Assembly: GCA_025923995.1 (NCBI GenBank)
Contig: JAICEW010000001.1
Location: 4,513-68,512, forward strand
Origin: Vicinamibacteria bacterium
GTDB lineage: Bacteria > Acidobacteriota > Vicinamibacteria > Fen-336
DNA length: 64,000 nucleotides
Reading direction: 5' to 3'
Within the stretch, counting starts at the first letter, position 1, and each line of letters starts with the position of its first letter. Under the pieces are notes generated by a model that worked only from the letters and a program-made list of their open reading frames with translations, was not told the origin of the DNA and ran no database searches. Both the position numbers and the translations under genes were made by a program. Shown here one piece after another: positions 2,192 to 18,285 of the stretch.

Positions 2192-2208
2192 CTCGCGCCT
2201 CCTGCGGG

Positions 2209-4131
2209 TCAGCGGCAGCTGTGGGTGCTGCACTTGGTCACCTTGAGCGTGCCCAGCGACGTCCCGTAGCTGATCACCGGCAGGCCGTCCGCGCCGAGCA
2301 CGACCGCCGAGTCGAAGCCCACGATGCCGCTTCCCGGCGCGAGGCTGTCCAGGCTCGTGAGGACGTTCCCCGCCGAGCAGGCCGCGTTGCCACACTTGGC
2401 GACGCGCAGCCCTTCGATGAACGAGCTGTAGAACGTCACGAGCGGGAGACCGTCCGCGCCGATCACGACCTGTCCCGTGGAGCCCAGGTCCGTGGCCAGC
2501 ACGGTGACGGTCGAGGTGCCCGTGCACGTGGCGTTCGCGCACTTCGCGGCCTTGAGGCTCAGGTCGGTGGCGAACTGCCCGAGGTAGCTCACGACGGGGA
2601 CGCCGTCGGCGCCGATCGCGATCGAGCTGTAGGCGCCGGCGAGCACACCCGCGCTCACCGGATCGTCGACCACCGTCAGCACGTTCCCCGCGCTGCACGC
2701 GGGCGTGCCGCAGTGCGCCACCTTGAGGACGCCCGCCGTCCGGTCGTGGTAGCTCACCACGGGCAGGCCGTCGGCCCCGACCGCGATGGCCGTGCCGTAG
2801 TCCACCGCGCCGATGGGATCATCCACGACCGTGATGGTGTTGGCGTTGCTGCAGGCGGCGTTCCCGCACTTCACCACCTTCAGCGTGCCCGCCGTCGTGT
2901 CGTTGTAGCTGACGACGGGCAGGCCGTCGGCGCCGATCGCGAGCGAGCTGCCCCGGCCCACCACGTTGACGGCGGGATCGTCCACGAAGGTGCGGGTGCT
3001 GACGCTGCAGAACGCGTTGGCGCACTTGGCGACCTTGAGCGCGCCCGCGCTCGCGTCGTGGTAGCTGATGACGGGGAGCCCGTCGGCGGGGACCGCGATC
3101 GACGTGTCGATGCCCACGACGGCCGCCGGGTCGTCCACCGTGACGGCGATGTTGCCCGCGCTGCAGGCCGGGTTGCCGCAGCGGAGGAACTTGAGCGCGC
3201 CGGCCGTCGCGTCGTGGTAGCTGACGACGGGCAGGCCGTCGGCGCCGATCGCGATCGAGGTGTCCTCGCCGACCTGGTTGACCGGATCGTCGGCGGTCGT
3301 GACCGCGGGCGGCACGAAGACGGCCTCGCAGACCACGGACCCGTCCGCGTTGATCCCGCGCAGGTACTGCCCGGCCGTGCACGCGCCGCTGACGCGCGCC
3401 TGCACCTGCGCGGTGTTGATCTGCGCGAGGCCGACGGCGCCGCCCGCGATCTTCGGCGACGTCACCGCCTGGGGCGCGATCAGGACCGTCGTGATTCCGG
3501 CGGCCGCGACCGCCAGCGTTCCCGTGCCCGTCACCGGTCCGCCGGTCAGCCCGGCGCCGGTGGCCACGGAGGTGACGGTGCCCCCGCTGTTGGCATCCGG
3601 TGCGCACGCCCACGCGGCGCCGTTCCACTTCGCGACCTGGCTGGGCGCGCAGGAGAGCGCGCCCAGCGCATCGTCGTCCGTGTCGTCGGCGAAGCCGGCC
3701 GGCTTGCCCGAGACGCCCGACCACGGCGCGGCTGCGCTCCACAGCGAGGCGGGCCCTGGCGTGAGCTCCTGCCGCGGCGCCAGGCTCGTGTAGCCGCCGG
3801 CGGACGCGCCCGGCCGGACGCCCACGTCCAGGAACCGCTGGCTGCCCGCGAACGCCGCCCCGAAGTCGAGCCTGACCGTGAACAGCCCGTTCGCGACCAC
3901 CACGTCGTCGCGCGCGACCGTCGGTCCGGACTGCGAGCCGCCGGCCACCGCGTCGAAGAGCCGGAACTGGAAGTCGAACGTGCCCTCGGCCGGCAGGCGG
4001 GCGTCCGTCAGCCGCCCCTGGTAGGTGAAGGCGGTGCCTTGCGGAGTCTGGGCCTGGACGGCGCCGGCGCCGGTGAGCACCGCGAGCGCGAACGCCGTCC
4101 GCGTGCGGCGGACTCGCGAGGGCATCGTCAT
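2209..4131 (-). CDS. secreted tail-fibre-like repeat protein, paralog A (shared N-terminal domain plus 8 x ~48-aa Cys-pair repeats)
   Basis: Start ATG at 4131 (MTMPSRVRRTRTAFALAVLTGAGAVQAQ signal peptide) overlapping the upstream stop as ATGA. The N-terminal ~230 aa are homologous to the N-terminus of the 4128-6233 product (FTYQGRL...FDFQF...GGSQ.GP...DDVVVA.GLFTV.LDFGA.FAGS...SGKPAGFADDTDDDALG...AKWNG..WACA). Then eight repeats of the form ...IAIGADGLPVVSY.D.TAG.LKV.KCGN.ACS...VVDDP. Confidence 0.7.
   Translation of the reverse strand: MTMPSRVRRTRTAFALAVLTGAGAVQAQTPQGTAFTYQGRLTDARLPAEGTFDFQFRLFDAVAGGSQSGPTVARDDVVVANGLFTVRLDFGAAFAGSQRFLDVGVRPGASAGGYTSLAPRQELTPGPASLWSAAAPWSGVSGKPAGFADDTDDDALGALSCAPSQVAKWNGAAWACAPDANSGGTVTSVATGAGLTGGPVTGTGTLAVAAAGITTVLIAPQAVTSPKIAGGAVGLAQINTAQVQARVSGACTAGQYLRGINADGSVVCEAVFVPPAVTTADDPVNQVGEDTSIAIGADGLPVVSYHDATAGALKFLRCGNPACSAGNIAVTVDDPAAVVGIDTSIAVPADGLPVISYHDASAGALKVAKCANAFCSVSTRTFVDDPAVNVVGRGSSLAIGADGLPVVSYNDTTAGTLKVVKCGNAACSNANTITVVDDPIGAVDYGTAIAVGADGLPVVSYHDRTAGVLKVAHCGTPACSAGNVLTVVDDPVSAGVLAGAYSSIAIGADGVPVVSYLGQFATDLSLKAAKCANATCTGTSTVTVLATDLGSTGQVVIGADGLPLVTFYSSFIEGLRVAKCGNAACSAGNVLTSLDSLAPGSGIVGFDSAVVLGADGLPVISYGTSLGTLKVTKCSTHSCR
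2212..3370 (-). repeat. in-frame tandem coding repeats (8 x ~144 nt) within the paralog A gene
   Basis: Periodic protein repeat GADGLPV(V/I)SY...LKV.KC(G/A)N..C seen eight times in the translation of 2209-4131; boundaries approximate. Confidence 0.5.
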
Positions 4132-6233
4132 GGCCGCGTGGCGGTGTGGCGCCGGTCGAGACCGCGCTCGGGCGGGGCGCCCCATGCGTCGGGGTGCAGG
4201 TAGGTCCCGCGCTCGTCGTCCGGCTTGTCTTCCTCGACCGGGATGCGGTGCTTCTCGGCGTACGCGTCCTGGCGTATCCCGGTCACCTGCCACGAGACCT
4301 CGATGCGCGGCAGGTCGGTCTGGACGACGAAGGTCCCGCCCGCCATCTTCCGCGAGACGCGTGCGCGCGCCCAGGCGCCGCCGCCGAGCACCGTGAGCTG
4401 GTAGCGGAAGTCGCGGTTCAAGGCCTCGAACCAGTCCGGCATCGTCACCGTCGCGTATCCCTGGTCGTCGGTGGTGACCACGCCGTCGTAGACGTTCTTC
4501 ATCTCCGGCGACTCGACGAACGAGTGGTACAGGTACCGGTTCTCGGGATCGAGCGGGTGGTCGATCTTGAACGAGCCCGCGCTCTTCGAGAGCGTCCCGT
4601 TCACGTGCAGGCGACCCGAGAAATAGCCGGCGTAGCCGGACGAGGAGCCCGAGAGCCCGTAGACGCCGACGTTGGCGCCGGTGGTTCCGGACGCCTGGCC
4701 GTAGACGCCGTACACCGTGCCCGTGCCGGTGGCCTCCCCGTGGACGCCGAAGCCGCGGACCACCTCGCCGTGCACGCCGGTCGCGACCCCGCCCGCCAGC
4801 GCCTGGCCCCGCACGCCGATGCCGACGCTGGACGTGCTGACGCCGTGCACGCCGACGATCGCGCCCGACGGCCAGTTCGCCTCGCCGTACACGCCGGTCG
4901 CTCCCACGGACTGGGCCCAGCCGTAGACGCCGAAGATGTCGCCGCTGCCTCCGAACGCGCGGCCCTGGACGCCGCGTCCGGCGCTGGACCAGCTCTCGCC
5001 CCACACGCCGGTCGTATTGCCCGAGGAGGCGAGCGCGTAGCCCACGACGCCGCGGCCTCCGGTCGACTCGGAGCGCCCCACCGCGCCGATCGTCGGCCCT
5101 CCGACGGTCGACGTCGCCCAGCCGTACACGCCCACGCCCTGGGTGGATTGCGACTGGCCCTCGACGCCGCGCGCGTCGCCGGAGCTCGCGAGCGCCACGC
5201 CCGACACGCCCCGCCCGAACGTCGACATGCTCCAGCCCTTCGCGCCGTACGTGAGCCCCGTGCTGGCCGTGTGCCAGCCGAACAGCGCGGAGCCGTAGCT
5301 GCTGCCGCTCTGTCCGCGCACGCCGAACTCGCCGCCCTCGGCGTAGACGCCGATGCCCTGGCTCGAGTCGCTCAGGCCGTAGACCCCGATGGTCGCGTTC
5401 GTGGTCGCGAGCGCGTGACCGTAGACGCCGACGCCGCTGGTCGAGCTGGTCTCGCCGACCACGCCGCGGCTGAAGCCACCGCCGGCTCCGGCGCGCGCCA
5501 GGAGGCCGGTGCCCGCGTTCGCCGTGCTCTCGACCGTGAGGCCGGTCGCGCTGCCCGCGTTCCAGGTCTGGCCGTGATGGTTGTGGTCGCTGCGCGCGAC
5601 CGTGGTCGACGCGCCGCCGCCGCCGAACGCGACGCTCAGCGTTCCCGTCGAGGTGATCGGCCCGCCCGCGAGGCCCGCCCCCGCCGCGACCGAGGTGACG
5701 GTGCCCGGGTTCACGCTGTCCACCGCGCACGCCCAGCCGTTGCCGTTCCACTTCGCGACCTCGCCGGCCGCGCAGGTGAGGCCGCCCAGCGCGTCGTCGT
5801 CCGTGTCGTCCGCGAAGCCGGCCGGCTTGCCCGAGACGCCGGTCCAGGGCGCGGCCGCGCTGAAGAGCGCGGTCGGGGTCGAGGTCAGCTCCTGGCGGGG
5901 CACGATCGGGGTGTAGGTGCCGGCGCTCGCGCCGGGCCGCACCGAGACGTCGAGCCAGCGCCGGCTCCCGGCGAAGGACGCGCCGAAGTCGAGCGCGACG
6001 GTGAAGAGCCCACCGGCCACCACCACGTCGTCGCGCAGCACGATGGGGCCGACCTGCGAGCCTCCCACCGCGGCGTCGTAGAGGATGAACTGGAAGTCGA
6101 ACGCGCCGTCGGCCGGCGCCCCACCGTCGGCCAGCCGGCCCTGGTAGGTGAAGCTCGAGCCCTGGGGAGTCTGGGCGGCGGCCGCCCCCCCCAGCAGGGC
6201 GGAGACGGCGGCCCCGACGATCGCGTAGCGCAT
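4128..6233 (-). CDS. secreted tail-fibre-like protein, paralog B (shared N-terminal domain, Gly-rich ~11-aa periodic repeats, conserved C-terminal IDHPLDPEN-type domain)
   Basis: Start ATG at 6233 (MRYAIVGAAVSALLGGAAAAQTPQG signal peptide) with AAGGAG upstream. The stop TGA (4130-4128) overlaps the next gene's ATG (4131-4129) as ATGA. The central region is a periodic G.GV(Y/W/H)G.(A/S)xxS repeat. The C-terminus reads SAGSFKIDHPLDPENRYLYHSFVESPEMKNVYDGVV... Confidence 0.7.
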   Translation of the reverse strand: MRYAIVGAAVSALLGGAAAAQTPQGSSFTYQGRLADGGAPADGAFDFQFILYDAAVGGSQVGPIVLRDDVVVAGGLFTVALDFGASFAGSRRWLDVSVRPGASAGTYTPIVPRQELTSTPTALFSAAAPWTGVSGKPAGFADDTDDDALGGLTCAAGEVAKWNGNGWACAVDSVNPGTVTSVAAGAGLAGGPITSTGTLSVAFGGGGASTTVARSDHNHHGQTWNAGSATGLTVESTANAGTGLLARAGAGGGFSRGVVGETSSTSGVGVYGHALATTNATIGVYGLSDSSQGIGVYAEGGEFGVRGQSGSSYGSALFGWHTASTGLTYGAKGWSMSTFGRGVSGVALASSGDARGVEGQSQSTQGVGVYGWATSTVGGPTIGAVGRSESTGGRGVVGYALASSGNTTGVWGESWSSAGRGVQGRAFGGSGDIFGVYGWAQSVGATGVYGEANWPSGAIVGVHGVSTSSVGIGVRGQALAGGVATGVHGEVVRGFGVHGEATGTGTVYGVYGQASGTTGANVGVYGLSGSSSGYAGYFSGRLHVNGTLSKSAGSFKIDHPLDPENRYLYHSFVESPEMKNVYDGVVTTDDQGYATVTMPDWFEALNRDFRYQLTVLGGGAWARARVSRKMAGGTFVVQTDLPRIEVSWQVTGIRQDAYAEKHRIPVEEDKPDDERGTYLHPDAWGAPPERGLDRRHTATRP
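4670..5620 (-). repeat. degenerate ~33-36 nt tandem coding repeats (Gly-rich beta-helix-like) within the paralog B gene
   Basis: DNA periodicity of gtagacgccg / gtgcacgccg / gtacacgccg units; the protein shows GVYG / GVHG / GVWG periodicity. Boundaries approximate. Confidence 0.45.
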
Positions 6234-6354: not shown

Positions 6355-7008
6355 TCACATCCAGGGGATGAACGGGTCCTCGTACGGCGGCTCCGGCAGC
6401 CCGACACACTCGCAGGTGAACGGGCACACGTAGCGCCAGCACTGCCCCCCTGAGTCCCACCACCAGTGACAGCTGCAGCTGAAGCCGGCCACGCCGCCCT
6501 GTGGCGCCAGGGGGTTGTTGCACCAGAGCTCACAGTAGTGCTCGATGCCCTCGCAGCTCTGGCTCGATCCCTGGCACCGCTGCCCATAGCTCACGGTGGC
6601 GCCGGTGGCCGGCGTCAGCTTGAACCGGTGGTGGGGGTCGACCGGCCCGACCGCCTTGCTGTCGAGGATCACCCGGGCGGTCTGCGTCTTGCCCGGATCG
6701 ATGTCGTACCCCTGTGCGACCTTCACGCGACGCACCAGCGTGCCGTCGGGCTTCGAGATGTCGAGCGACCAGCCGCCGGCCGTCACGAGCAGGTTGCTCG
6801 TGGTGTTGTGGACGCCGATCTGGAACCCGATCGAGTACTTGCCGCCCGCCTCGGGAATGAGGCGGGCGTCCCCGACCGTCAGCTTGAACGGCGCCTCGGG
6901 CGACGAGACGGCCTGGATCGTGATGGGGATCGGCTCCGCGGCCATCAGGATGGCGGCCACGGCAAGGGTCAGCGCGGCGGCGGCGGCAACGGCCGTTCGC
7001 GGGCGCAT
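6355..7008 (-). CDS. secreted Cys/Trp-rich protein (beta-sandwich N-terminal part plus a C-terminal ~70-aa domain with 12 Cys)
   Basis: Start ATG 7008-7006 (MRPRTAVAAAAALTLAVAAILMAAEP signal peptide) sharing one nt with the TGA of the metzincin gene (TGATG). The C-terminus reads RCQGSSQSCEGIEHYCELWCNNP...FSCSCHWWWDSGGQCWRYVCPFTCEC. Confidence 0.65.
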   Translation of the reverse strand: MRPRTAVAAAAALTLAVAAILMAAEPIPITIQAVSSPEAPFKLTVGDARLIPEAGGKYSIGFQIGVHNTTSNLLVTAGGWSLDISKPDGTLVRRVKVAQGYDIDPGKTQTARVILDSKAVGPVDPHHRFKLTPATGATVSYGQRCQGSSQSCEGIEHYCELWCNNPLAPQGGVAGFSCSCHWWWDSGGQCWRYVCPFTCECVGLPEPPYEDPFIPWM

Positions 7009-7961
7009 CAGAAGCACCCGTTCGTGTAGGTGGCCGTCCGGTTGCCGCGGCGGTAGCAGCTGCAGCCCGACGCGTTGCACGCGCGCACCCGCACGTACGC
7101 GGAGGCCACGACGTTCAGCGTGGTCATGGTGTCGGGCCCGGAATACACGAGCGTCTGTGTTCCGAAGCCGGAGCTGCTCGACCGGTACACCTCGTACCGC
7201 GTGGCGCCGGCCGAGGGAGCCCAATCGAGGTCGTTCAGCCCGTAACACATCGCCGGAGTCACGGTGAAGCTGGCGGGCGCGGGCGGAGCGCCCGTCGCGC
7301 CGCAGTACCGCTCCTGGGAGCACTTCAGGGCGTTGCGGTCGTCCGTCTCCAGGCTCCGCTGCTGCGTCCCGCCCCAGTACGTCGCGTCCATGGTGGGCGT
7401 CTGGTTGGTTGCGGCGGGCACCGAGAGCTCGGTGTGGTGGATGCCCAGCGCGTGGCCCAGCTCGTGGGCCGCGACCGCCTGCGTGTCGTTGTCCATTCCG
7501 TTCGTGAACCAGTTGACGTTGTCCTCGAACACGATGTCGGACTCGATGATGACCTGCCCCGGCTGCTGCAGGACGAGCTGGGTGAGAGCGATGCAGCCGT
7601 TGCACGGGATCGCCTGGGCCCAGGAGAGGGTGTTCTGCTGGTCCACGGTGAACCCCGCGTTGGTGGTGCCCGCGTACGTGAGCACGTGGTCGGCGCCGGG
7701 GACGTTCGTCCAGGACGTCATGGCCGCCGTGAGTGCTGCCGCCTTGCCGTTCCCCTGGCGGGCCAGGTTGTGGAACCAGTTGGTGAACGGCGTGTTCCAG
7801 TGGGTGAAGCCGCCCGGGTCGTTGCAGGGCACGCGAAGGCCGCTGGTCTGCGCGCCGGCATTCGTCTGCTGGATCAGGCGCGAGGCGTCCGATGGAACCG
7901 CGATGCCCGACAGCAGGATCGCGGCCGTGGCGAGTCTCGTGAGACGACGTGGGCGGGTCAT
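7008..7961 (-). CDS. secreted zinc metalloprotease of the metzincin class (HExxHxxGxxH) with a C-terminal Cys-containing FN3-like tail
   Basis: AAHELGHALGIHH motif plus a downstream Met-turn candidate (PTMDATY). Signal peptide MTRPRRLTRLATAAILLSG. Start ATG 7961-7959 with GAGGAGG upstream, overlapping the upstream gene's stop as ATGA. Confidence 0.8.
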   Translation of the reverse strand: MTRPRRLTRLATAAILLSGIAVPSDASRLIQQTNAGAQTSGLRVPCNDPGGFTHWNTPFTNWFHNLARQGNGKAAALTAAMTSWTNVPGADHVLTYAGTTNAGFTVDQQNTLSWAQAIPCNGCIALTQLVLQQPGQVIIESDIVFEDNVNWFTNGMDNDTQAVAAHELGHALGIHHTELSVPAATNQTPTMDATYWGGTQQRSLETDDRNALKCSQERYCGATGAPPAPASFTVTPAMCYGLNDLDWAPSAGATRYEVYRSSSSGFGTQTLVYSGPDTMTTLNVVASAYVRVRACNASGCSCYRRGNRTATYTNGCF

Positions 7962-8554
7962 CGCTGCACCTCCTCGGCGGGCCCCTGCCTCACGGCATCG
8001 AGGATCCGCTGCGTGAGCTCGTGAAGCGGGAGGCCGTCGGGGCCACCCGCGGGATCCCTGCGGCCGAACCGATCGGCCACGAGCGGATGGGACGCCGCCT
8101 GGCTCACGGCGTGCGTGACGCCGTCCGTGCCCTCGGCCAGGTCGAACACGCCCTGCGACAGGTAGCTGGGGGTGAGTGCGTCGGCCGCTCCCGGGAGCGT
8201 CCCGCGGCCGAGGAACAGCACGTAGCTGCGGCCTGTTTGAAGCGAGGCTCCGGCGACGATCATCGCCGTGCGGTCCCCGACCGTTCCTCCCAGCAGCGTG
8301 ACGGTGATCTCCGCCCCGGCGCTTCCCTTCAGCACCTCGGTCGGGGCGACCCGCACGTCGGTGAAGATCAGGCTCCGCGCCGCGTTCCAGTACGAGCGCG
8401 CTCCCATGACCTCGCCGACCACGACCGTCTCGTGGGCTGCGGTCAGGTCCTCCAGGCTGGCGCGAACCATCGTGGTCGCGTCCGCGGATGCCACACAGCC
8501 GAGCGCGAGCGCGATCGCGCCGGTGGCATGCCTCCATGTCTTGTTCGTGTGCAT
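7958..8554 (-). CDS. secreted hypothetical protein (198 aa); first gene of the coupled triad
   Basis: Start chosen at ATG 8554 (MHTNKTWRHATGAIALALGCVASADA signal peptide) preceded by GAGGAGGTGGACCAC. The ORF-track start at 8644 adds 30 non-hydrophobic residues. Confidence 0.6.
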   Translation of the reverse strand: MHTNKTWRHATGAIALALGCVASADATTMVRASLEDLTAAHETVVVGEVMGARSYWNAARSLIFTDVRVAPTEVLKGSAGAEITVTLLGGTVGDRTAMIVAGASLQTGRSYVLFLGRGTLPGAADALTPSYLSQGVFDLAEGTDGVTHAVSQAASHPLVADRFGRRDPAGGPDGLPLHELTQRILDAVRQGPAEEVQR

Positions 8555-8909
8555 GTGGTCCACCTCCTCGGCGAGACGGACGCGGGGTGAGGGCCGGCTC
8601 TCTCGGCACGAGGCGGGGGACGTGATGCGCCTCACCGCACGCACGTGTCACGCGTGCCTGGTGATCGCGGGATGACGAAGCTTCCGCGAAGCCGCCTGCG
8701 GGGGGACTGGGGGAGGAGGCTCGGCGGCTGGCGGGCCGGCGGAAGAGGGAGGCCGCCGCCCGCACCGGCCAGCCGACTCTTCCGCGGATCGGCTGCCCCG
8801 GCGCCACCCGGGCGGCGACGGTTCCCTACCCCTATGTGACGCGCGAAACCCATCCGTTACGTCTCAGGGGGGAAGCCTGGTCGTCCTAGAATGTCGGTGC
8901 CCTGGTCCC

Positions 8910-11900
8910 ATGCGCGGTCGAGCCCATTCGCCGGCTTGGACCCCTTTCCGGACGGTCCTGCTGTGCCTGGCGGCCTCGCCGTTCGTGGTCGCGCTCGAGG
9001 AGACGGTCGTCCCGAACGGCGTTCCCCTGCCCTTCGAGCTGACGGGCGGCGAGCCCAACCGCCACCCGTTGGCGCTCGAAGCGGGCCAGCTCCTGGACGT
9101 GGAGCTGCGCGAGAGATCGTCGCGGCTCGGCCTCGCCCTCCTCGATCCCTCGGGCGCCGTCGCCGCGCGACGTGAGGTGGCCGGAGAGAGCATCACGACG
9201 GTGCGCCTGCTCGCCGTGGCTCCGGTCGCGGGGCTCTACACGCTCGAGGTCCGGGCCCAGTCACCGGGCGCGCCGGGAGGCTACACGCTTGGCATCCAGC
9301 CGCCCCGTGCGGCCGGCACCGCCGAGCGGACGCGCGTCTCCGGCGACGAGGTGCATGCCGAAGCCCTCCGGGAGGCGGCCAAGGGCACGCCGGACGGCCG
9401 ACGCGGGGCGCTCGAGCGGCTGGCCGTCGCCGAGAAGGCGTTCGGCGAGACCGGCGACCGTCTCGGCCTCGCCCTCGTGCTCCAGGATCGCGGGACCGTG
9501 CAGCTCGCGCTCGGAGACCTCGCCGCCGGCCCGTCGTCGTATGAACGCGCGCTCGATCTGTTCCGCCGGATGGACCACGCCGAGGGCGAGGCGGCGGCGC
9601 TGTGCGGGCTGGGGCGCGCGAAGCTGGCCCAAGGTGAGCTGGAGCTGGCGGGACAGTTGTTCGATCGGGCGCTCGAACGTGCCGGCGCGGCCAATCCACG
9701 CACCGTCGCCTACTACACCAGCAACGCCGGGATCGTGCTGGCGCGCACTGGACGCTACGAAGGCGCGATCGCGCGTTTCTCCCGCGCGGCCGAGCTGGTG
9801 GCCCCGACGGGGGACGGGCGCGGCCAGGGCCGCGCGCTCACCAACCTGGCGAGCGCCCACAAGGAGCTGGGCGACTACGAGCGCGCGGCCGCCATCTACG
9901 ATCGCGCGCTCGCGGTGTGGGAGAAGGCCGGACAGCGCGACGGCATGCTGATGACGCTCGTCAACCTCGGCAACATGGCCCTGCTGCAGGACGACGTGGA
10001 GCGCGCACAGGCGCTGCTGGAGAAGGCCCTGCCGCTGGCGGAGGGCACGGGGACCGACGAGGAAGGCCGTCTCCTCATGAACCTGGCGGCGATCCATCGG
10101 CGGCGCGGGGACCTGCCGCGGGCCGTCCCTCTGGCCGAGCGGTCGCTCGAAATCAGGCGGCGCGCGGCCCAGCCGCGTGGCATCGCCAGTTCGCTGCAGA
10201 TCCTCGCGGACTGCGTACGCGACGCCGGCGACCCGGAGCTGGCCCTGCGCCACCTCACGGAGGCGCTGGCGCTGCAGCAGTCCATCCAGGACGCGTACCT
10301 GGGCTCGGAGACGCTCAGCCGCATGGCCGAGCTGGAGCGCTCCGGTGGCCGCCTGAAGGAGGCCGTGCAGCACGCCGAGCAGGCGGTGAGCCTTGTCGAG
10401 TCGCTGCGGGCTTCCGTGACGAACCCGGACCTGCGCGCTTCGTTCGTCGCGGTCGAGCGGGTCAAGTACGACCTGCTGGTCGACGTGCTGATGCGCCTGC
10501 ACGAGCAGGACCCGGCGGCGGGGCACGACGCGGCCGCCCTGGCCGTCAGCGAGCGCGCCAGCGCGCGCGTCCTTCTCGACTCGCTGGTGGAGGCGCGCGC
10601 CGACATCCGCGCCGGCGTGGACGCCGCGCTGCTGGCCCGCGAGCGGGAGCTCCAGAAGCGGATGACCGAGGGCTCCACGCGCCTGTCGTCGCTGCTCGCC
10701 CGGCAGGCCCCGGCCGGAGACGTGGAGCCCGCTCGCGCCGCACTCGAAGCCGCGTCCGAGGAGTACCGCCAGCTCCAGGCCACGATCAGGGCGCAGAGCC
10801 CCCGCTATGCCGCGCTCACCCAGCCCCAGCCCCCCACGCTGGAGCAGCTGCGGCAGGACGCGCTGGACGAAGGGACGCTCCTGCTGGAGTACTTCCTGGG
10901 CGACGACCGCAGTGTCCTCTGGGTCGTGGGCCGGAAGGAGCTCGTGAGCGTCTCGCTGCCCGCCCGCCGGAGGATCGAGGAGCCCGCCCGGCGCATCCAC
11001 GAGCTCCTGAGCGAGCGGCAGCGCTCGCGTGGTGCCGCCGCGCGCGCGGCCGACGAGCGCCTCCGCGCGGAGTCGGCGGCGCTGTCGGAGGTGCTGCTCG
11101 GGGGCATCGCGCCGCGGCTGCGGGCCGACTGGCGCGGCAAGCGCCTCCTGATCGTGGCGCCGGGCGCGCTGGCGTACGTTCCCTTCGCCGCGCTCCCGCT
11201 GCCCGGCGACGCCGGCGGCCGCCCCCTGTTGGACGGCCACGAGGTGGTCTACGCGCCGTCGGCCTCCGTGCTGATCGCCTTGCGCCGCGAGCCGCCCCCG
11301 GTCACGGAACGGTCGACGGTCGCCGTGCTGGCCGACCCGGTCTTCGAGGCGGACGACCCCCGCGTCGGCCGCTCGGGGGGGCACGCCTCGCGGGCGCCGC
11401 AACCGGTCGGGCTGGGCCGCGCGATGCGGAGCCTGGGGCGCGACCACTTCACGCGCCTGCCCTTCTCCCGCGCGGAGGCGGCGGCGCTCGCGTCGCTGGT
11501 GCCCGAGCGTGACCTGCTGCGCGCGACCGACTTCGCGGCGTCGCGCGCGCTCGTCGACGAGGGCGCGCTGGCGGGGCGACGCATCGTGCACTTCGCGACC
11601 CACGGCATCCTCGACACCGCGCACCCCGACCTGTCCGGCCTCGTGCTGTCGCTCGTGGACGAGAAGGGCCGGCCGCGCGACGGCTTCCTGCGCATGCACG
11701 AGATCTACAACCTGCGCCTGCCCGCGGACCTGGTGGTGCTGAGCGCGTGCCAGACCGCGCTCGGCCGCGAGGTGCGCGGCGAGGGGCTGGTCGGCCTCAC
11801 GCGCGGCTTCCTCTACGCCGGCGCGCGCCGCGTGATGGCCAGCCTCTGGCAGGTCGACGACGAGTCGAGCGCGGAGCTGATGAGGCGCTTCTATCGCGCC

Positions 11901-12026
11901 CACCTGCGCGACGGGCAGCCGCCGGCGGCCGCGCTGCGCGCCGCGCAGGCGGAGATGTCCCGCGACCGCCGGTTCGCCGCGCCGTTCTACTGGGCGGCGT
12001 TCACCCTCACCGGCGACTGGCGCTGA
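8910..12026 (+). CDS. multidomain CHAT (caspase-like) protease: N-terminal PPC-like domain, TPR repeats, coiled linker, C-terminal CHAT domain
   Basis: TPR-like segments (LGLALVLQDRG..., ALTNLASAHKELGDYERAAAIYDRAL..., LMNLAAIHRRRGDL...). The CHAT domain carries the His/Cys dyad (IVHFATHGILD ... LVVLSACQTALG). The N-terminus (FRTVLLCLAASPFVVALEE) may be a signal peptide. Start codon uncertain; the only in-frame ATG is at 8910. Confidence 0.85.
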   Translation: MRGRAHSPAWTPFRTVLLCLAASPFVVALEETVVPNGVPLPFELTGGEPNRHPLALEAGQLLDVELRERSSRLGLALLDPSGAVAARREVAGESITTVRLLAVAPVAGLYTLEVRAQSPGAPGGYTLGIQPPRAAGTAERTRVSGDEVHAEALREAAKGTPDGRRGALERLAVAEKAFGETGDRLGLALVLQDRGTVQLALGDLAAGPSSYERALDLFRRMDHAEGEAAALCGLGRAKLAQGELELAGQLFDRALERAGAANPRTVAYYTSNAGIVLARTGRYEGAIARFSRAAELVAPTGDGRGQGRALTNLASAHKELGDYERAAAIYDRALAVWEKAGQRDGMLMTLVNLGNMALLQDDVERAQALLEKALPLAEGTGTDEEGRLLMNLAAIHRRRGDLPRAVPLAERSLEIRRRAAQPRGIASSLQILADCVRDAGDPELALRHLTEALALQQSIQDAYLGSETLSRMAELERSGGRLKEAVQHAEQAVSLVESLRASVTNPDLRASFVAVERVKYDLLVDVLMRLHEQDPAAGHDAAALAVSERASARVLLDSLVEARADIRAGVDAALLARERELQKRMTEGSTRLSSLLARQAPAGDVEPARAALEAASEEYRQLQATIRAQSPRYAALTQPQPPTLEQLRQDALDEGTLLLEYFLGDDRSVLWVVGRKELVSVSLPARRRIEEPARRIHELLSERQRSRGAAARAADERLRAESAALSEVLLGGIAPRLRADWRGKRLLIVAPGALAYVPFAALPLPGDAGGRPLLDGHEVVYAPSASVLIALRREPPPVTERSTVAVLADPVFEADDPRVGRSGGHASRAPQPVGLGRAMRSLGRDHFTRLPFSRAEAAALASLVPERDLLRATDFAASRALVDEGALAGRRIVHFATHGILDTAHPDLSGLVLSLVDEKGRPRDGFLRMHEIYNLRLPADLVVLSACQTALGREVRGEGLVGLTRGFLYAGARRVMASLWQVDDESSAELMRRFYRAHLRDGQPPAAALRAAQAEMSRDRRFAAPFYWAAFTLTGDWR

Positions 12027-12114
12027 CCCCGACCGACCGATCGGTTTGACTGGCTCGCCGGAAGAGCGTAGCTTCGAGCGTACGGCCAACCCTCAGCGCG
12101 ATCCCATCCGTCTC

Positions 12115-14604
<2,490 letters not shown>

Positions 14605-14657
14605 GAACGAAAGGCTCGCCCTCGGTCCGGCGATCGGCCGGGAGGTAGTCTCTACTC

Positions 14658-16007
14658 GTGGTCCCGCAGGAGCTGCTCGAACGGATCCGGCTGCGGCTGG
14701 AGGAGAGCTTCGTCGGCATCGGCGCCCACGTGGCCGAGCTGGCCGACGTGGACGTGGCCGACCTGGTCAACGAGCTGACGCTCCAGGAGGGCGCGGCCGT
14801 CGTCTCGATGCTGCCGGTGGTGCGGGCGGTGGGCGTGCTGGACCAGCCCAGCCTGCGCCGGCGCAGCGCCATCGTGGAGCAGCTCGACCCGGGGCGGGCC
14901 GGGCAGCTGCTCGAGCAGCTCTCGGCCGACCAGCGCACCGAGATCGTCCGCGAGATGGGCCAGCTGGAGCGCCGGCGCGTCCTGCCCAAGCTGTCGGCCG
15001 CGGCCCAGGCCGAGCTGGAGGGCCTCCTGCAGTACCCGCCGCACTCGGCGGGCGGCATCATGACCACCGAGTTCGTGCGGCTCTCGCCCGGCCTGACCGT
15101 GGGCGAGGCGCTCAAGCACCTGCGCGCCGTGGCCCGCGAGAAGGAGTCGATCTACGCCTGCTACGTGATGGAGCCGGAGACGGGCCGGCTGCTCGGCGCC
15201 GTCTCGCTGCGCGACCTGGTGATGGCGGAGATGGGGAGCCCGCTGGTGGACGTCATGCGGCGCAAGCCGGTGACGGTGGCGGCGCTGGACGACCGCGAGC
15301 TGGTCGCCCAGAAGATCGCCAAGTACAACCTGCTGGCGGTGCCGGTGCTGGAGGCGGACGGCCGCGTGGTCGGCTTCGTCACCGTGGACGACGTCATCGA
15401 CGTCCTGGTCGAGGAGCAGACCGAGGACATCCTGCGCATGGCCGCCGTCGAGCCGGGCCTGGACAAGCCCTATTTCGACAACCCGATCTGGCGCGTGGTG
15501 CGCAAGCGCGTCGGCTGGCTGCTGCTGCTGTTCGTGGGCGGCACCCTCACCGGCACCGTCCTGCGGCACTTCGAGGGCGAGCTGTCGGCGGTGGTGGCGC
15601 TCAGCTTCTTCATCCCCATGCTCATCGGCACCGGCGGCAACGCCGGCGCGCAGACGGTGATGACGGTCATCCGCAGCCTGGCCCTCTCCGAGATCCGCTT
15701 CCGCGACGCCTGGAAGGTCGTGCTGCGCGAGGCGCTCACGGGGCTGACGGTGGGCGTGATGATCGCGACGGCCGCGCTGGGCCAGGCCCTGCTGACCGGC
15801 GCCTCGCTCACGCTCGCCATCACGGTCGCGCTCACCATGCTCGCCATCTGCCTGTGGTCGACGGCCGTCGGCGCGCTCATCCCGCTGGTGGCACAACGGG
15901 TGGGCCTGGACCCGGCCGTCCTCTCCGCCCCGCTCATCACCACGATGGTGGATGCGACGGGCCTGGTCATCTACTTCTTGATCGCAAAGACCGTTCTGGG
16001 GCTTTGA
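14658..16007 (+). CDS. mgtE: magnesium transporter MgtE (N-terminal domain, CBS pair, TM domain)
   Basis: Full-length similarity to the MgtE family (CBS pair ...[26 protein letters not shown]...; TM region [17 protein letters not shown]). GTG start. Confidence 0.85.
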
Positions 16008-16053: not shown

Positions 16054-18285
16054 ATGACCGACCCGGCCGAGGTCCTGCGCGCGGCGGCGCTGGACCTGGC
16101 GCGCACGCTCGACCTGGAGCGCGTGCTCGAACGGCTGCTCGACCACCTCGGCGTCCTGGTCGCCTACGACACCGCGAACGTGATGCTGCTGGCGGACGTC
16201 ACGCGGCTCGAGGTGCGCGCGGTCCGCGGCTACGAGCGATGGGGCACCGCCGAGACGGTCCGCCAGGGCGTCTTCGAGGCGAGGAACCACCCCGTGCTGA
16301 CGCCGATCCTCGACCGCCGCGCGAGCATCCTCATCGCGGACACGCAGACCGATCCCCACTGGCAGCGGCACGACGGCGCCGATCACGTGCGCAGCTGGAT
16401 GGGGGTCCCGCTGGTGGCGGGCGACGAGGTGTTCGGGCTCTTCTCGATCGACCGCTCGCTGCCCGGCGCGTTCGGGCCCCGCGACGTCGCGTCCACCGAG
16501 GCGCTGGCGCCGTTCGCCGCCATGGCCATCCGCAACGCGCGCCTGTTCGAGCGCCTGCGGGCGGAGGAGCAGCGCCACCGCGCGCAGGTGGGCGAGTTCC
16601 AGAAGCTGCTGGAGGTGATCCCGATCGGCATCGGGATCGCCCGCGACCCCTCCTGCACGGTGATCGAGAGCAACCCGTACCTGGCACGGCTGTTCGGCAC
16701 CCGCTCCGGCGACAACGTCTCGTTCTCGGGGCCGCCCGGCACGCTGCCGACGGGCGTCGGCCTCCATCACCACGGCGTCCCCATCCCGTCCGCGGACCTG
16801 CCCATGCAGCGCGCCGCGCGCACGGGGGAGGAGGTCGTGGACATGGAGATGGACCTCGTCCGCGACGGCGCCCAGGTGGCCACCATCCTCGGCTACGCGG
16901 GCCCGCTGCTGGACGACGAGGGCAAGCCGCGCGGCGCGATCGGCGTCTGCCTCGACATCACCGAGCGCAAGCGGGTGGAGGAGCAGGTGCGGAGCCTGGC
17001 CTACCGCGACTCGCTCACCGGCCTCCCCAACCGCCTGCTCTTCCACGACCGGCTCTCGGTGGCGGTGGCCAGCGCGCACCGCCATCGCCGCGGTGTCGCC
17101 GTGCTGTTCCTGGACCTCGACCGGTTCAAGGTCATCAACGACTCGCTCGGCCACTCGGTGGGCGACCGGCTGCTGCAGGAAGTCTCGGAGCGGCTCCGCG
17201 CCTGCGTGCGCGAGGGCGACAGCGTGGCCCGGCTGGGGGGCGACGAGTTCACCGTCCTGCTGCAGGACGTGGGGGCGCCCGCGGACGCCGCGCGCATCGC
17301 GGAGAAGGTGCTGGACGCCCTGCGCGCCCCCTTCCGGCTGGAGGGCCACGAGCTGTTCGTGACCGGCAGCGTGGGCGTCAGCCTGTTCCCCGAGGACGGG
17401 CAGTCCGCGGAGACGCTCATCAAGCACGCGGACACCGCCATGTACCGGGCCAAGGAGCAGGGCCGCGACGGGCTGCAGCTCTACACGCCGGTCATGAGCG
17501 TGGCGGCGCTGGAGCGGCTCGCGCTCGAGAGCGGGCTGCGGCGCGCGCTGGCGCGCAGCGAGTTCGTCCTCCATTACCAGCCCATCCTCGACATCGCCGG
17601 CCGCAGGCTGCACGGTGTCGAGGCCCTGCTGCGGTGGCGCCATCCCGAGCTGGGCCTGCTGGGGCCCGACCGCTTCCTGCCGCTCGCGGAGGCGACCGGC
17701 CTGGTGCTGCGCATCGGCCCCTGGGTCCTGGGCGAGGCCTGCCGGCAGGTGCGGGCGTGGCAGCAGCGCGGCCATCCCGAGCTGAGCCTCGCCGTCAACA
17801 TGAGCGCGCGGCAGTTCCTGCAGCCGGGGCTGCTGGGGACGGTCGCCGCGGTGCTCGACGAGACGGGCCTGGCGCCGGCGCACCTGGAGATCGAGATCAC
17901 CGAGACGGACGCCATGCAGAACGCCGACCTGATGGGCGAGACGCTGCGCGGCCTGGTGAGCCTGGGGGTGCGCCTCTCCATCGACGACTTCGGCACCGGC
18001 TACTCGTCGCTGGGCTACCTGAAGCGGTTCCCCATACAGACCCTCAAGATCGACCGCTCGTTCGTCGGCGACGTGGTGTCGGACCAGGACGATGCCGCGA
18101 TCGTCTCCGCCATCCTGGCCATGGCGCGCACGCTCAAGCTGCACGTGGTGGCGGAGGGGGTCGAGACGGCCGAACAGCTCGAGTTCCTCTCCGCGCGCGG
18201 CTGCGAGCGCGCGCAGGGCTTCTACCTCGGCCGGCCGCTCCCGCAGGAGGAGGTGGAGCGCGCCCTCGGCATCGGCGCGCTTTGA
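16054..18285 (+). CDS. GAF/PAS sensor protein with GGDEF diguanylate cyclase and EAL phosphodiesterase domains (c-di-GMP turnover)
   Basis: RLGGDEFTVLL (GGDEF), EALLRWRHPELG (EAL), DDFGTGYSSL, QGFY motifs. N-terminal GAF-like and PAS-like segments. Confidence 0.85.
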   Translation: MTDPAEVLRAAALDLARTLDLERVLERLLDHLGVLVAYDTANVMLLADVTRLEVRAVRGYERWGTAETVRQGVFEARNHPVLTPILDRRASILIADTQTDPHWQRHDGADHVRSWMGVPLVAGDEVFGLFSIDRSLPGAFGPRDVASTEALAPFAAMAIRNARLFERLRAEEQRHRAQVGEFQKLLEVIPIGIGIARDPSCTVIESNPYLARLFGTRSGDNVSFSGPPGTLPTGVGLHHHGVPIPSADLPMQRAARTGEEVVDMEMDLVRDGAQVATILGYAGPLLDDEGKPRGAIGVCLDITERKRVEEQVRSLAYRDSLTGLPNRLLFHDRLSVAVASAHRHRRGVAVLFLDLDRFKVINDSLGHSVGDRLLQEVSERLRACVREGDSVARLGGDEFTVLLQDVGAPADAARIAEKVLDALRAPFRLEGHELFVTGSVGVSLFPEDGQSAETLIKHADTAMYRAKEQGRDGLQLYTPVMSVAALERLALESGLRRALARSEFVLHYQPILDIAGRRLHGVEALLRWRHPELGLLGPDRFLPLAEATGLVLRIGPWVLGEACRQVRAWQQRGHPELSLAVNMSARQFLQPGLLGTVAAVLDETGLAPAHLEIEITETDAMQNADLMGETLRGLVSLGVRLSIDDFGTGYSSLGYLKRFPIQTLKIDRSFVGDVVSDQDDAAIVSAILAMARTLKLHVVAEGVETAEQLEFLSARGCERAQGFYLGRPLPQEEVERALGIGAL

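Follow-up and report, generated by a model that had tools for sequence, protein, structure and literature searches.

Gene content of the locus and domain organization of the CHAT protein

The genes described here lie within a stretch of 64 kb, probably from a Vicinamibacteria/Acidobacteriota MAG, whose full length is referred to as the window. The ORF at 8910–12026 on the plus strand, taken as the frame from first start to stop, encodes a protein of 1038 aa ending in a caspase-like CHAT domain, and its product is identical to a database protein (P0001). Directly downstream on the same strand follows a gene for a Hanks-type Ser/Thr kinase. The following features were assigned to the CHAT gene:

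8910–12026, plus strand: gene for the PPC-TPR-CHAT protein, 1038 aa (ORF and translation; GC3 0.91; Pfam; 425 homologs at E ≤ 1e-10)
8910–8996, plus strand: signal-peptide-like N-terminus, aa 1–29 (basic MRGRAHSPAWTPFR, hydrophobic TVLLCLAASPFVVA, possible cleavage site between VVA and LEE)
9012–9314, plus strand: PPC-like eight-stranded beta-sandwich, aa ~35–135 (AF2, Foldseek, weak Pfam PPC match)
9318–10409, plus strand: TPR-like solenoid of 18 helices or ~9 hairpins, aa 137–500 (Pfam TPR_12, AF2 secondary structure)
10410–11075, plus strand: long-helix scaffold and beta-hairpin linking the TPRs to CHAT, aa 501–722 (AF2, alignment)
11076–12017, plus strand: CHAT caspase-like domain, aa 723–1036 (Pfam PF12770, E 3.9e-68; Foldseek)
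11601–11603, plus strand: codon for His898, predicted as catalytic (HFATH-G), where strand 892–896 ends in AF2 (codon checked)
11748–11750, plus strand: codon for Cys947, predicted as catalytic (LSAC-QT), immediately behind strand 941–945 in AF2 (codon checked)

An earlier note on this DNA had described the protein as a PPC-like beta-sandwich followed by at least six TPR-like repeats and a CHAT domain whose His/Cys dyad is intact, and this organization was borne out. For the N-terminal domain, Pfam gave only weak matches to PPC (PF04151), namely a sub-threshold one in the window copy (17.1 bits vs. a cut-off of 25.9, E 0.01) and matches at E ≤ 1 in 12 of 24 homolog domains (best E 6.7e-5). Its AF2 model (pLDDT 88, eight strands) was matched by Foldseek to the C-terminal domain of Tk-SP (E 6e-5), the collagen-binding domains of ColH/ColG, and the PPC domain of a B. 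anthracis collagenase, with TM scores of 0.62–0.70 against 3jqw, 1nqd, and 5sv5 (0.65–0.70 for the ColH/ColG domains); GOLD domains scored like PPC, the fold class being generic. In the full-length AF2 model (pLDDT 86), the 18 helices between aa 137 and 500 formed about nine TPR-like hairpins, and TPR_12 was found in six stretches, so that the count of at least six repeats turned out to be conservative. The region linking the TPRs to CHAT was modelled as helices (506–637) and strands (656–683) and displays conserved motifs including LRASF and SPRYAALTQP in the homolog alignment. The notion that this architecture represents a tripartite sensor is incorrect, and a STAND/NLR-like sensor was rejected as an identity, since Pfam and NCBIfam revealed no NACHT, NB-ARC, or AAA_16 P-loop NTPase as a central module and the AF2 model placed helical repeats and long helices between PPC and CHAT.

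The match to the CHAT model was above threshold and covered the whole domain (230.5 bits vs. a cut-off of 24; model positions 5–289 of 289). Its two dyad motifs, HFATHG (aa 894–899) and SACQT (aa 945–949), place His898 and Cys947 behind the core strands 892–896 and 941–945 of the AF2 model, and both residues (His898 together with Gly899) were invariant in 30/30 aligned CHAT homologs. A flexible loop of low pLDDT (aa 949–958) lies behind Cys947. Peptidase activity of the CHAT domain is predicted from homology. When the whole protein was compared by Foldseek, the top matches were Csx29 (8eey_B, E 1.3e-15), DdvA (8rw5/8rot, E 4e-14), and separase (E ~2e-13), with alignments covering 850–1150 columns and global TM scores of 0.23–0.38, low as expected for flexible solenoids. 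The protein accordingly displays the separase/craspase/DdvA-type architecture: its single chain unites a TPR scaffold with CHAT, and the overall fold matches. Separase and Csx29, both characterised TPR-CHAT proteins, are narrow-specificity regulatory proteases.

In regard to localization, the N-terminal segment reached a Kyte–Doolittle hydropathy of 1.94 (aa 16–34) and was modelled with a pLDDT below 50 (aa 1–31). A basic-then-hydrophobic N-terminus with the PPC-like domain next to it was present in 28/30 CHAT homologs, and PPC domains are typical of secreted proteins and proteases. Export by a cleaved Sec-type signal peptide is predicted from these features, and the protein is most likely a periplasmic sensor-protease. 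The possible export put forward in the earlier note is thereby supported, and for a periplasmic caspase-like protease, which the note called unusual, DdvA of Myxococcus with its periplasmic TPR-CHAT part now provides a precedent (PMC11506125).

The kinase gene and its conserved neighbours

Downstream of the CHAT gene, the following features were assigned:

12027–12114, no strand: spacer of 88 nt between CHAT stop and kinase ATG (synteny and evolutionary-rate boundary)
12115–14604, plus strand: gene for a soluble Hanks Ser/Thr kinase with TolB-like/TPR C-terminal region, 829 aa (Pfam, NCBIfam, ortholog lengths)
12151–12939, plus strand: protein kinase domain, aa 13–275 (Pkinase E 4.4e-42; VIK, HRD, DFG, and SPE motifs)
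13216–13644, plus strand: alpha/beta 'TolB-like' module, aa ~368–510, motif VAVMPFKNLAGDP (weak assignment)
13672–14553, plus strand: C-terminal TPR array and TPR end-of-group domain, aa ~520–813 (Pfam TPR_19, TPR_16, TPR_2)
14658–16007, plus strand: gene for MgtE Mg2+ transporter (Pfam MgtE_N, CBS, MgtE)
16054–18285, plus strand: gene for a GAF-PAS-GGDEF-EAL protein, as context (Pfam; close-relative conservation)

The kinase ORF extends from 12046 to 14604 with ATG 12115 as its most likely start and TTG 12046 as an alternative; the orthologs listed have lengths of ~808–845 aa, the closest ones of 825–829 aa. The distance to the CHAT stop is 88 nt from the ATG or 19 nt from the TTG. The kinase domain is of the Hanks type (144.7 bits vs. 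a cut-off of 31.7; VIK at aa 40–42, HRD at 133, DFG at 153, SPE at 190). Regarding the C-terminal region, the TPRs of the earlier note were confirmed, including an NCBIfam match to NF047558 at aa 760–813, but for a TolB-N-like module there were only weak hints, namely the JGI name 'TolB-like protein' of the orthologs, an NCBIfam alignment of aa 340–716 to the C-terminal region of HilA/EilA, and FlgO (E 0.021) as the sole Pfam match; a sequence search revealed no PDB relative of this module.

The most constant neighbour of the kinase is MgtE, which was located directly 3' on the same strand in 46/50 metagenomic orthologs with enough downstream sequence. The same order was found in all seven annotated contexts, including orthologs of 65–66% identity, and in two of the relatives (L087 and L088) both genes overlap by 4 nt. 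In close relatives, the GGDEF-EAL gene is part of this conserved block as well (91.5% identical in L001; present in L085 and L086).

It had been suggested that kinase and CHAT protein are dedicated partners in signalling or conflict, the CHAT protein being a phosphorylation target of the kinase, or the kinase or its substrates being processed by the protease. Both genes indeed lie on the same strand only 88 nt apart, and neither a promoter-like nor a terminator-like site was detected in this spacer. Since the closest relative, L001, also retains the order, the two genes may be co-transcribed in this lineage. However, a CHAT gene was located 5' of the kinase in only 1/33 metagenomic orthologs, this copy being truncated and on the opposite strand, and from the side of the CHAT gene, any Hanks kinase within 10 kb was found in 11 of 80 family loci. 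Even relatives with a kinase of 91–93% identity show a broken adjacency: the P0003 contig carries an opposite-strand gene of 641 aa between both genes, the CHAT gene is reduced to a minus-strand fragment of 281 aa in L084, and it is absent from the kinase locus in L085 and L086. Only truncated, inverted CHAT fragments remain in L084 and L090 at the place of the window gene, and no kinase adjoins the CHAT ortholog on the contigs of P0004, P0006, P0007, and P0008.

A further difference was detected in evolutionary rates. Compared to L001, amino acid identity amounts to 68% for the CHAT protein (dN/dS 0.36), as opposed to 94% for the kinase, 95% for MgtE, and 91.5% for the GGDEF-EAL protein (dN/dS 0.10–0.12), resulting in a boundary at the CHAT/kinase junction across which dN/dS differs about 3-fold. 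Within the CHAT protein, the TPR solenoid is the fastest-evolving large domain (dN/dS 0.44, compared to 0.26 for CHAT), and the PPC and TPR parts diverge most, with dN/dS far below 1 in every domain. In addition, a 19-aa hydropathy scan revealed no transmembrane segment in the kinase (maximum 1.32; highest value among 107 orthologs 1.88), so that it is predicted to be cytoplasmic and thus in a compartment different from that of the export-like CHAT protein.

Ser/Thr kinases do adjoin CHAT genes elsewhere in the family, but they differ in type. At L009 and L024, the CHAT gene lies beside an ECF sigma and a single-TM kinase, on the P0005 contig beside an ECF sigma and a Pkinase-AAA_16 kinase, and a similar single-TM kinase was found near the CHAT gene in L078 and L040. 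The pairs at L009, L024, and P0005 resemble known ECF sigma/Ser-Thr kinase modules (TIGR02999/PF07638-type sigma), whereas the window lacks such a sigma and its kinase, without a TM segment, belongs to a separate MgtE-linked ortholog group. The CHAT–kinase idea hence survives in small part at the family level, in a minority of loci, with a different kinase type and, at L009, L024, and P0005, together with a sigma factor. For the window itself, proteolysis and phosphorylation as a pair is highly improbable, because the pairing is not conserved; CHAT gene and kinase are probably chance neighbours representing two functionally separate units, and the conserved partner of the kinase is MgtE, not the CHAT protein.

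Sigma/anti-sigma cassettes and comparison with known TPR-CHAT systems

The CHAT family is large and mainly found in Acidobacteriota. Sampling of 80 family loci, a paralog-rich set with 33–47% identity to the window protein, revealed a same-strand cassette of the CHAT gene with genes for an ECF sigma and an anti-sigma of about 300 aa in 33/80 loci (27/55 among loci flanked by 2.5 kb or more on each side). In the anti-sigma, a zf-HC2 match is combined with a single TM segment and a beta-domain at the C-terminus. L083, harboring a CHAT ortholog of 52% identity, carries this cassette (sigma E 2e-61, anti-sigma E 1e-45), which neither the window nor L001 or L082 contains. As family HMMs and a broader ECF HMM (E ≤ 10) identified no sigma or anti-sigma gene within the 64-kb window, the CHAT gene is an orphan in this respect, and we infer its likely background from the cassette context of the family.

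The cassette is reminiscent of DdvA, an anti-sigma fused to a periplasmic TPR-CHAT part, for which cleavage by CHAT as a site-1 protease is a hypothesis of its authors, who reported the fused type only from Myxococcota and one Comamonas species (PMC11506125). Though no sequence similarity between the window protein and DdvA was detected by HMMER, DdvA revealed the highest sequence identity (17%) among the top structural matches. Both have a large TPR-CHAT module of about 900 aa outside the cytoplasm (predicted for the window protein), similar overall length and CHAT position (702–991 in DdvA, 723–1036 here), and comparable dyads (H862/C907 vs. H898/C947). A further parallel, at the family level, is that the genes are linked to those of an ECF sigma and a zinc-finger anti-sigma domain. 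While DdvA is a single-chain fusion of ZAS, TM helix, and TPR-CHAT, the window protein starts with the 29-aa signal-peptide-like segment and the beta-sandwich, without any zf-HC2 or anti-sigma match in Pfam or NCBIfam, and the anti-sigma of its relatives is a separate protein that has a small periplasmic domain of its own. Moreover, the DdvA type is based in Myxococcota, unlike the family described here. Identity of the window protein as a DdvA-type transmembrane anti-sigma was therefore rejected, as it has neither a ZAS domain nor an adjacent ECF sigma.

Csx29 of the type III-E CRISPR craspase, the best structural match (~890 aligned columns), shares the TPR and CHAT architecture at a sequence identity of 12–14%. 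Its known biology likewise ends in ECF-type sigma control, through Csx30 and RpoE (PMC10028731). Csx29 is cytoplasmic, bound to Cas7-11, and activated by target RNA, in contrast to the window protein with its export-like N-terminus and PPC-like domain. The nine neighbouring ORFs scanned (2209–23655, ~7 kb upstream and 12 kb downstream) revealed only MgtE, GGDEF-EAL, and a weak matrixin match, with six ORFs lacking a Pfam assignment; no Cas domain was found by Pfam in these or in the two proteins, and PADLOC gave no Csx29-type match. Craspase identity was rejected on the basis of this missing association with Cas7-11/gRAMP or Csx30/Csx31. Separase likewise combines a helical-repeat scaffold with a caspase-fold protease domain, but the similarity is one of fold only, separase being eukaryotic, nuclear or cytoplasmic, much larger, and regulated by securin and phosphorylation.

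The kinship to Csx29 and DdvA raises the question of an anti-phage or conflict system, with the CHAT protein as sensor or effector in the manner of craspase, of proteases that activate gasdermins, or of the defence islands under DdvA control. The DdvA-controlled island is of the CBASS/CRISPR kind (PMC11506125), one cassette sigma cluster weakly resembles a type III-E CRISPR-associated sigma (E 6e-4), and the rapid divergence of the sensor domains would also suit such a role. PADLOC, however, returned merely a generic TPR model and no CHAT-type defence match, the genes annotated nearby encode MgtE, a GGDEF-EAL protein, and secreted proteins, no NTPase or gasdermin Pfam domain occurs in either of the two proteins or in the nine ORFs scanned, and the low dN/dS of every domain speaks against it as well, so that we regard this as very unlikely.

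Even less probable is that the gene represents a decaying, functionless remnant of a former cassette. The cassette partners are missing from the window, L084 and L090 have just the truncated, inverted fragments, and the CHAT dN/dS is raised relative to its neighbours. Yet the ORF of 1038 codons is intact with a GC3 of 0.91, neither the dyad nor any of the 63 family-invariant positions has been lost, the AF2 model is of high confidence, and the dN/dS values, both overall and in the CHAT domain, indicate that the gene is still under purifying selection.

Proposed roles of the two units

Altogether, we favour the explanation, at a probability of roughly 60%, that the locus comprises two separate units, an exported orphan TPR-CHAT sensor-protease and a cytoplasmic kinase–MgtE unit concerned with MgtE, Mg2+, or a shared signal. 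In the first unit (8910–12026), a Sec-type signal peptide would take the protein into the periplasm, where the PPC-like beta-sandwich and the fast-evolving TPR solenoid would serve to bind a protein, be it ligand or target, and the separase/craspase/DdvA-type CHAT domain with His898/Cys947 would, by homology, make a specific cut. As the family cassette consists of a sigma and a single-pass ZAS anti-sigma with a short periplasmic beta-domain, the likeliest ancestral mechanism would be that of a 'split DdvA': the soluble periplasmic TPR-CHAT protein would sense a signal and either clip the periplasmic part of the anti-sigma as a site-1 protease in trans or shield it, thereby gating RseP-type intramembrane proteolysis and sigma release. 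In the window copy, the linkage to any sigma/anti-sigma pair would have been lost; this protein probably continues to act as a periplasmic sensor-protease, with envelope proteins or an unlinked membrane regulator as its targets.

A secreted or periplasmic protease that works alone and has no sigma role, processing the neighbouring secreted families or other envelope or extracellular substrates, would also account for a window devoid of sigma and anti-sigma genes, for the PPC domain known from secreted proteases, and for a fast evolution like that of many exported proteins. In the window, L001, the P0003 contig, and L084, the CHAT gene adjoins a cluster of signal-peptide-bearing paralogs (N-terminus AQTPQGTxFTYQGRL) as well as a CLIPPER-domain protein. 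We nevertheless consider this unlikely: the dominant conserved neighbours in the family are sigma/anti-sigma pairs rather than secreted substrates, the secreted-paralog cluster remains in L085 despite loss of the CHAT gene, and separase and Csx29, as noted, are regulatory proteases of narrow specificity.

For the second unit (12115–16007), the soluble Hanks kinase would form a strongly conserved two-gene unit with MgtE and most likely serve MgtE/Mg2+ homeostasis or a signal common to the nearby c-di-GMP enzyme, not the CHAT protein. The proposal of a CHAT–kinase conflict or signalling pair can be dropped. A soluble Hanks kinase almost always directly 5' of MgtE hints that Ser/Thr phosphorylation and Mg2+ transport may be coupled in a way not yet studied.

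Periplasmic TPR-CHAT proteins were previously known only from DdvA, reported for Myxococcota and one Comamonas. The relatives of the window protein, though not the window itself, lead to an Acidobacteriota-centred family in which the DdvA logic appears split over three genes for a sigma, a small anti-sigma, and an exported CHAT-TPR protein. We tentatively put forward, as a possibility and with less confidence than the two-unit explanation, that the PPC-TPR-CHAT proteins of Acidobacteriota and neighbouring groups may act in trans in the periplasm, as site-1 proteases or as sensors for anti-sigmas of the single-pass type, i.e., a far more widespread two-polypeptide version of DdvA, the window gene being an orphan that would still act on an unlinked anti-sigma or other membrane regulator. 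If true, caspase-like control of ECF sigma factors would be more widespread than thought, and with protease and presumed substrate on separate proteins, the site-1-protease hypothesis for DdvA would become directly testable in vitro by mixing both.

Architecture and fold of the CHAT protein

At a GC content of about 73% in the window, the true reading frames were picked out by third-position GC, and the two genes that the earlier note had read as a signalling pair from sequence alone were found as described, together with the genes downstream of them:

8910-12026, + strand: CHAT protein gene, ORF of 1038 aa
11601-11603, + strand: codon of His898 (position checked)
11748-11750, + strand: codon of Cys947 (position checked)
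12115-14604, + strand: Hanks kinase gene, 829 aa, start ATG 12115, 88-nt gap after the CHAT gene
14658-16007: MgtE gene, downstream of the kinase
16054-18285: gene for a GAF-PAS-GGDEF-EAL protein, downstream of MgtE

In Pfam searches, CHAT was matched over its full length at aa 723-1036 (E 3.9e-68), and TPR_12 in six places. The dyad motifs HFATHG (aa 894-899) and SACQT (aa 945-949) were intact, and His898 and Cys947 were invariant in all 30 aligned homologs. The N-terminus consists of basic residues (MRGRAHSPAWTPFR) and then a hydrophobic segment (TVLLCLAASPFVVA), and an equivalent start in 28 of the 30 homologs is consistent with the possible signal peptide noted before.

In the full-length AF2 model (pLDDT 86, pTM 0.82), residues 1-31 were disordered and were followed by a beta-sandwich. 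A separate AF2 model of aa 26-140 (pLDDT 88) showed this sandwich to have eight strands, and its best solved matches were the jelly-roll at the C-terminus of Tk-SP subtilisin, the collagen-binding domains of ColH/ColG (TM 0.65-0.70), and a collagenase PPC domain; 12 of 24 homolog domains gave weak matches to the Pfam profile for PPC. Eighteen helices at aa 137-500 make up about nine TPR-like hairpins, followed by long scaffold helices (aa 506-637) and beta-hairpins in front of the alpha/beta CHAT domain. Therein, a core strand precedes each of His898 and Cys947, and a flexible loop (949-958) lies directly after the latter. The PPC-like domain and the minimum of six TPRs proposed earlier were thus recovered along with the CHAT domain and its dyad.

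Comparison of the model with the PDB via Foldseek placed Csx29, the TPR-CHAT protein of the type III-E CRISPR craspase, at rank 1 (E 1.3e-15), followed by the Myxococcus anti-sigma factor DdvA (8rw5/8rot, E ~4e-14), whose identity of 17% was the highest among the top matches, and by separase. HMMER searches of the PDB with the CHAT domain, as a single sequence and as a 10-sequence profile, resulted in no relevant relative, and the kinship with Csx29 and DdvA, as seen in the predicted model, is detectable at the fold level only. Since no NTPase module was revealed by Pfam, NCBIfam, or the AF2 model, the protein does not qualify as a tripartite sensor of the STAND type. No CHAT-type defence model of PADLOC was matched.

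Probable separate units around the CHAT gene and the kinase

The start of the kinase was set at ATG 12115 because of the lengths of its orthologs (about 808-845 aa among the matches listed, 825-829 aa for the closest). The motifs VIK, HRD, DFG, and SPE are all present, and beyond the catalytic domain come a linker rich in proline and arginine, an alpha/beta module bearing the motif VAVMPFKNLAGDP, and a TPR array at the C-terminus. For the TolB-N-like module, a relaxed Pfam scan gave FlgO as the sole, weak match (E 0.021), and phmmer found no match in the PDB. Matches of the kinase to the PADLOC models PD-T4-6 and mad6 were dismissed as generic, reflecting a shared kinase fold and not membership. 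A hydropathy scan revealed no membrane-spanning hydrophobic segment (maximum over 19 residues 1.32, and 1.88 among 107 orthologs), so that the kinase is predicted to be cytoplasmic. Judged by their sequences, the two proteins would thus reside in different compartments, with the CHAT protein apparently exported.

The order CHAT, kinase, MgtE, GGDEF-EAL was kept in the related locus L001, which carries a CHAT ortholog of 68-69% identity. In the contig of a 67% ortholog (P0003), CHAT gene and kinase are separated by an oppositely oriented gene of 641 aa; the contig of a 56% ortholog had no kinase, and no kinase adjoined the CHAT gene of two 52% orthologs and one 50% ortholog. The 54% ortholog (P0005 contig) is followed by an ECF sigma factor (PF07638) and a different kinase of 1293 aa (Pkinase-AAA_16). 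Of 80 loci of the CHAT family, drawn from GTDB species representatives, only 11 had a Hanks kinase within 10 kb of the CHAT gene. This corresponds to about one per 120 kb sampled and was not judged a general enrichment; the specific association with a kinase is limited to a small sigma-kinase-CHAT subset of the family.

Seen from the kinase, any CHAT match upstream was found in only 1 of 33 metagenomic orthologs with at least 1.2 kb of upstream sequence, and there it was inverted. Upstream of kinases with 91% identity (L085, L086), the CHAT gene was absent and five helical proteins of about 300 aa were found instead, and at 65-66% identity (L087, L088) the upstream genes were unrelated. Locus L084 (kinase 93% identical) harbored the CHAT gene only as a 281-aa fragment on the opposite strand. 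Such a fragment of about 281 aa, which begins at the position matching residue ~777 of the window protein, lies amid secreted-protein paralogs in L084 (4053-4898, -) and L090 (759-1730, -), whose kinases are 93-95% identical, and looks like a rearranged remnant. The pairing of CHAT gene and kinase is not conserved, and the CHAT gene is located at a synteny breakpoint. Overall, the domains, the dyad, and the probable export put forward in the earlier note stood, and its functional pair was abandoned along with the tripartite sensor.

What is conserved lies on the other side of the kinase. The kinases form a tight ortholog group, with hundreds of clusters sharing 65-70% identity across the last 499 aa. 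In the loci surveyed for kinase and MgtE (window 12115-16007, L087, L088, and L089-L167), MgtE was found immediately 3' of the kinase on the same strand in 46 of the 50 metagenomic orthologs that had 700 nt or more of downstream sequence; both genes overlap by 4 nt in L087 and L088. Since MgtE is kept beside the kinase orthologs and the CHAT gene is variable, the conserved unit is kinase-MgtE. The function of the kinase is most likely tied to MgtE, or to a signal common to both. In the top-ranked 10 of 131 papers matched, no description of a kinase-MgtE link was found. A PAS/GAF-GGDEF-EAL gene was often present near this unit in varying orientation.

Comparison of the window genes with their L001 counterparts (CHAT gene 8910-12026 versus L001 5200-8331) revealed a sharp difference in evolutionary rates, an independent sign that CHAT gene and kinase are separate units.

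Table. Amino-acid identity and dN/dS of window genes compared with L001
Kinase: 94%, dN/dS 0.12
MgtE: 95%, dN/dS 0.10
GGDEF-EAL: 91.5%, dN/dS 0.12
CHAT protein, whole: 68%, dN/dS 0.36
CHAT protein, PPC part: 53%, dN/dS 0.41
CHAT protein, TPR part: 62%, dN/dS 0.44
CHAT protein, CHAT domain: 80%, dN/dS 0.26

Divergence within the CHAT protein was greatest in the PPC and TPR parts. The dS of its gene was also raised (0.62 versus 0.30-0.43 for kinase, MgtE, and GGDEF-EAL). Together with the raised dN/dS, this points to recombination or allelic replacement at this locus, or else to regimes of mutation or selection that differ between the genes. The dN/dS values of 0.26-0.44 indicate purifying selection and, together with the retention of all 63 family-invariant residues, argue that the CHAT protein of the window is still functional.

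Upstream of the CHAT gene, an ORF of 599 aa (7008-8807, -) with a weak matrixin (Peptidase_M10) match was rejected as a single gene, as the GC3 signal changes frame near 7950-8050: GC3 is high in the frame of the ORF only from about 7950 to 7008, and 7958-8647 (-) codes in another frame. Either a metalloprotease gene with a frameshift or two distinct genes occupy the region, and the stretch of about 2 kb containing it has no counterpart in L001. Beyond it, a cluster of genes for secreted proteins (512-6233, -) has its transcription pointing away from the CHAT gene:

512-2191, - strand: CLIPPER-domain protein
2212-4125 and 4131-6233, - strand: two signal-peptide-bearing paralogs of 640-700 aa (N-terminus AQTPQGTxFTYQGRL)

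The two paralogs matched no Pfam family; their evolution is fast, with 57-79% identity to relatives, and their copy number differs between genomes. In L085 (1991-6789, -), the variable slot upstream of the kinase is filled by tandem acidic proteins of about 300 aa, predicted to be all-helical, with faint Apolipoprotein matches. Such arrays, of four or five copies, were detected in L085 and L086 and upstream of the CHAT gene on the P0008 and P0003 contigs, and are absent from the window. A promoter and terminator scan of 8500-14800 revealed no promoter-like site and nothing between CHAT gene and kinase, but was uninformative because of the genomic GC content of 73%.

A sigma/anti-sigma cassette in the CHAT family

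When every ORF lying up to 5 kb from the CHAT gene was clustered for the 80 family loci (L002-L081), three same-strand neighbors recurred, namely proteins of about 300 aa (33 loci), 195 aa (20 loci), and 200 aa (9 loci); a further cluster (cluster 2, 32 loci) was discarded as a TPR-similarity artefact mixing unrelated proteins, among them CHAT paralogs, kinases, and GGDEF proteins. The two smaller proteins are ECF-type sigma factors, one cluster scoring above threshold for Sigma70_r2 and TIGR02937, the other being divergent (TIGR02989, E 3.5e-15). The divergent sigma (cluster 3, e.g., L046 7861-8451) stayed below all curated cut-offs and weakly resembles the type III-E CRISPR-associated RpoE-like sigma (NF041236, E 6e-4), an echo of the Csx29-Csx30-sigma link. 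In the ~300-aa protein, a zf-HC2-like anti-sigma motif at the N-terminus (E 4e-6) is combined with a single TM segment and, at the C-terminus, a beta-domain of about 100 aa; a sigma gene was also present in 29 of these 33 loci. Genes were arranged with short gaps, either as CHAT, sigma, anti-sigma or as sigma, anti-sigma, CHAT, for example:

L003, 8265-12953: cassette
L074, 10001-14348: cassette
L083, 4825-9458: cassette

Where the flanking sequence reached at least 2.5 kb on each side (55 loci), the cassette was present in 27; 10 of the 28 loci without it were taken as cyanobacterial, and when these are left aside the proportion is 27/45. In L083, which encodes a 52% CHAT ortholog, sigma (E 2e-61) and anti-sigma (E 1e-45) lie directly upstream of the CHAT gene, the anti-sigma stop overlapping the CHAT start. 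Both 52% orthologs (L083 9532-12600; P0007 contig) have a gene for a 1022-aa DnaE-type polymerase (PHP, DNA_pol3_alpha) directly after the cassette. In a minor variant, a single-TM Ser/Thr kinase takes the place of the anti-sigma factor beside a TIGR02999-type sigma (L009, L024); L078 and L040 harbor a similar single-TM kinase near the CHAT gene, the sigma assignment covering L009 and L024 only. The P0005 contig, with its PF07638 sigma and a kinase of other architecture, is analogous.

The periplasmic beta-domain of the anti-sigma factor (motif GDYxLxL...YxFxV) matched the C-terminal half of the PPC-like domain (window 8985-9329) marginally in a profile-profile comparison (hhalign probability 73%, E 3e-5, 65 columns), which hints at related or interacting beta-sandwiches. 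No description of the split cassette was found among the best-ranked literature results, and CHAT is not mentioned in the main text of the ECF re-classification paper. Neither the sigma and anti-sigma genes of the cassette nor the genes of its kinase variant were detectable in the 64-kb window or in the related loci L001 and L082, so that the CHAT gene of the window is an orphan, its partner genes missing.

Relation to DdvA and Csx29

The study on DdvA (PMC11506125) was the sole description of a periplasmic TPR-CHAT protein found in our literature search. DdvA is an anti-sigma factor whose periplasmic part of about 900 aa is a TPR-CHAT with the dyad H862/C907; its authors proposed that the CHAT domain acts as a site-1 protease clipping DdvA, which would enable RseP to cleave and the ECF sigma DdvS to be set free, a proposal beyond their testing because the signal is not known (PMC11506125). 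This fused type was found in Myxococcota and one Comamonas species only (PMC11506125). In the family of the window protein, these parts are distributed over several genes, and a PPC-like N-terminal domain is added. Unlike a DdvA-type anti-sigma, the window protein has neither a ZAS domain nor an adjacent sigma, and unlike craspase, its locus showed no Cas genes among CHAT gene, kinase, and the nine neighboring ORFs scanned; the fold is common to all three, and probably the compartment logic too.

The putative signal peptide would export the CHAT protein, the PPC/TPR part may bind a ligand or target, and the CHAT domain would make a specific cleavage. Ancestrally, the CHAT-TPR protein may have served as a trans-acting site-1 protease or as a sensor for the single-pass anti-sigma factor.

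The two leads that emerge are the kinase-MgtE operon and the cassette at the level of the family. With its parts on separate genes, the CHAT family represents a new variant of the periplasmic TPR-CHAT system known from DdvA. The Csx29 pathway of craspase likewise ends in control of an ECF-type sigma (PMC10028731); with DdvA, the split family, and Csx29 all linked to ECF sigma factors, control of these factors by TPR-CHAT proteins recurs.
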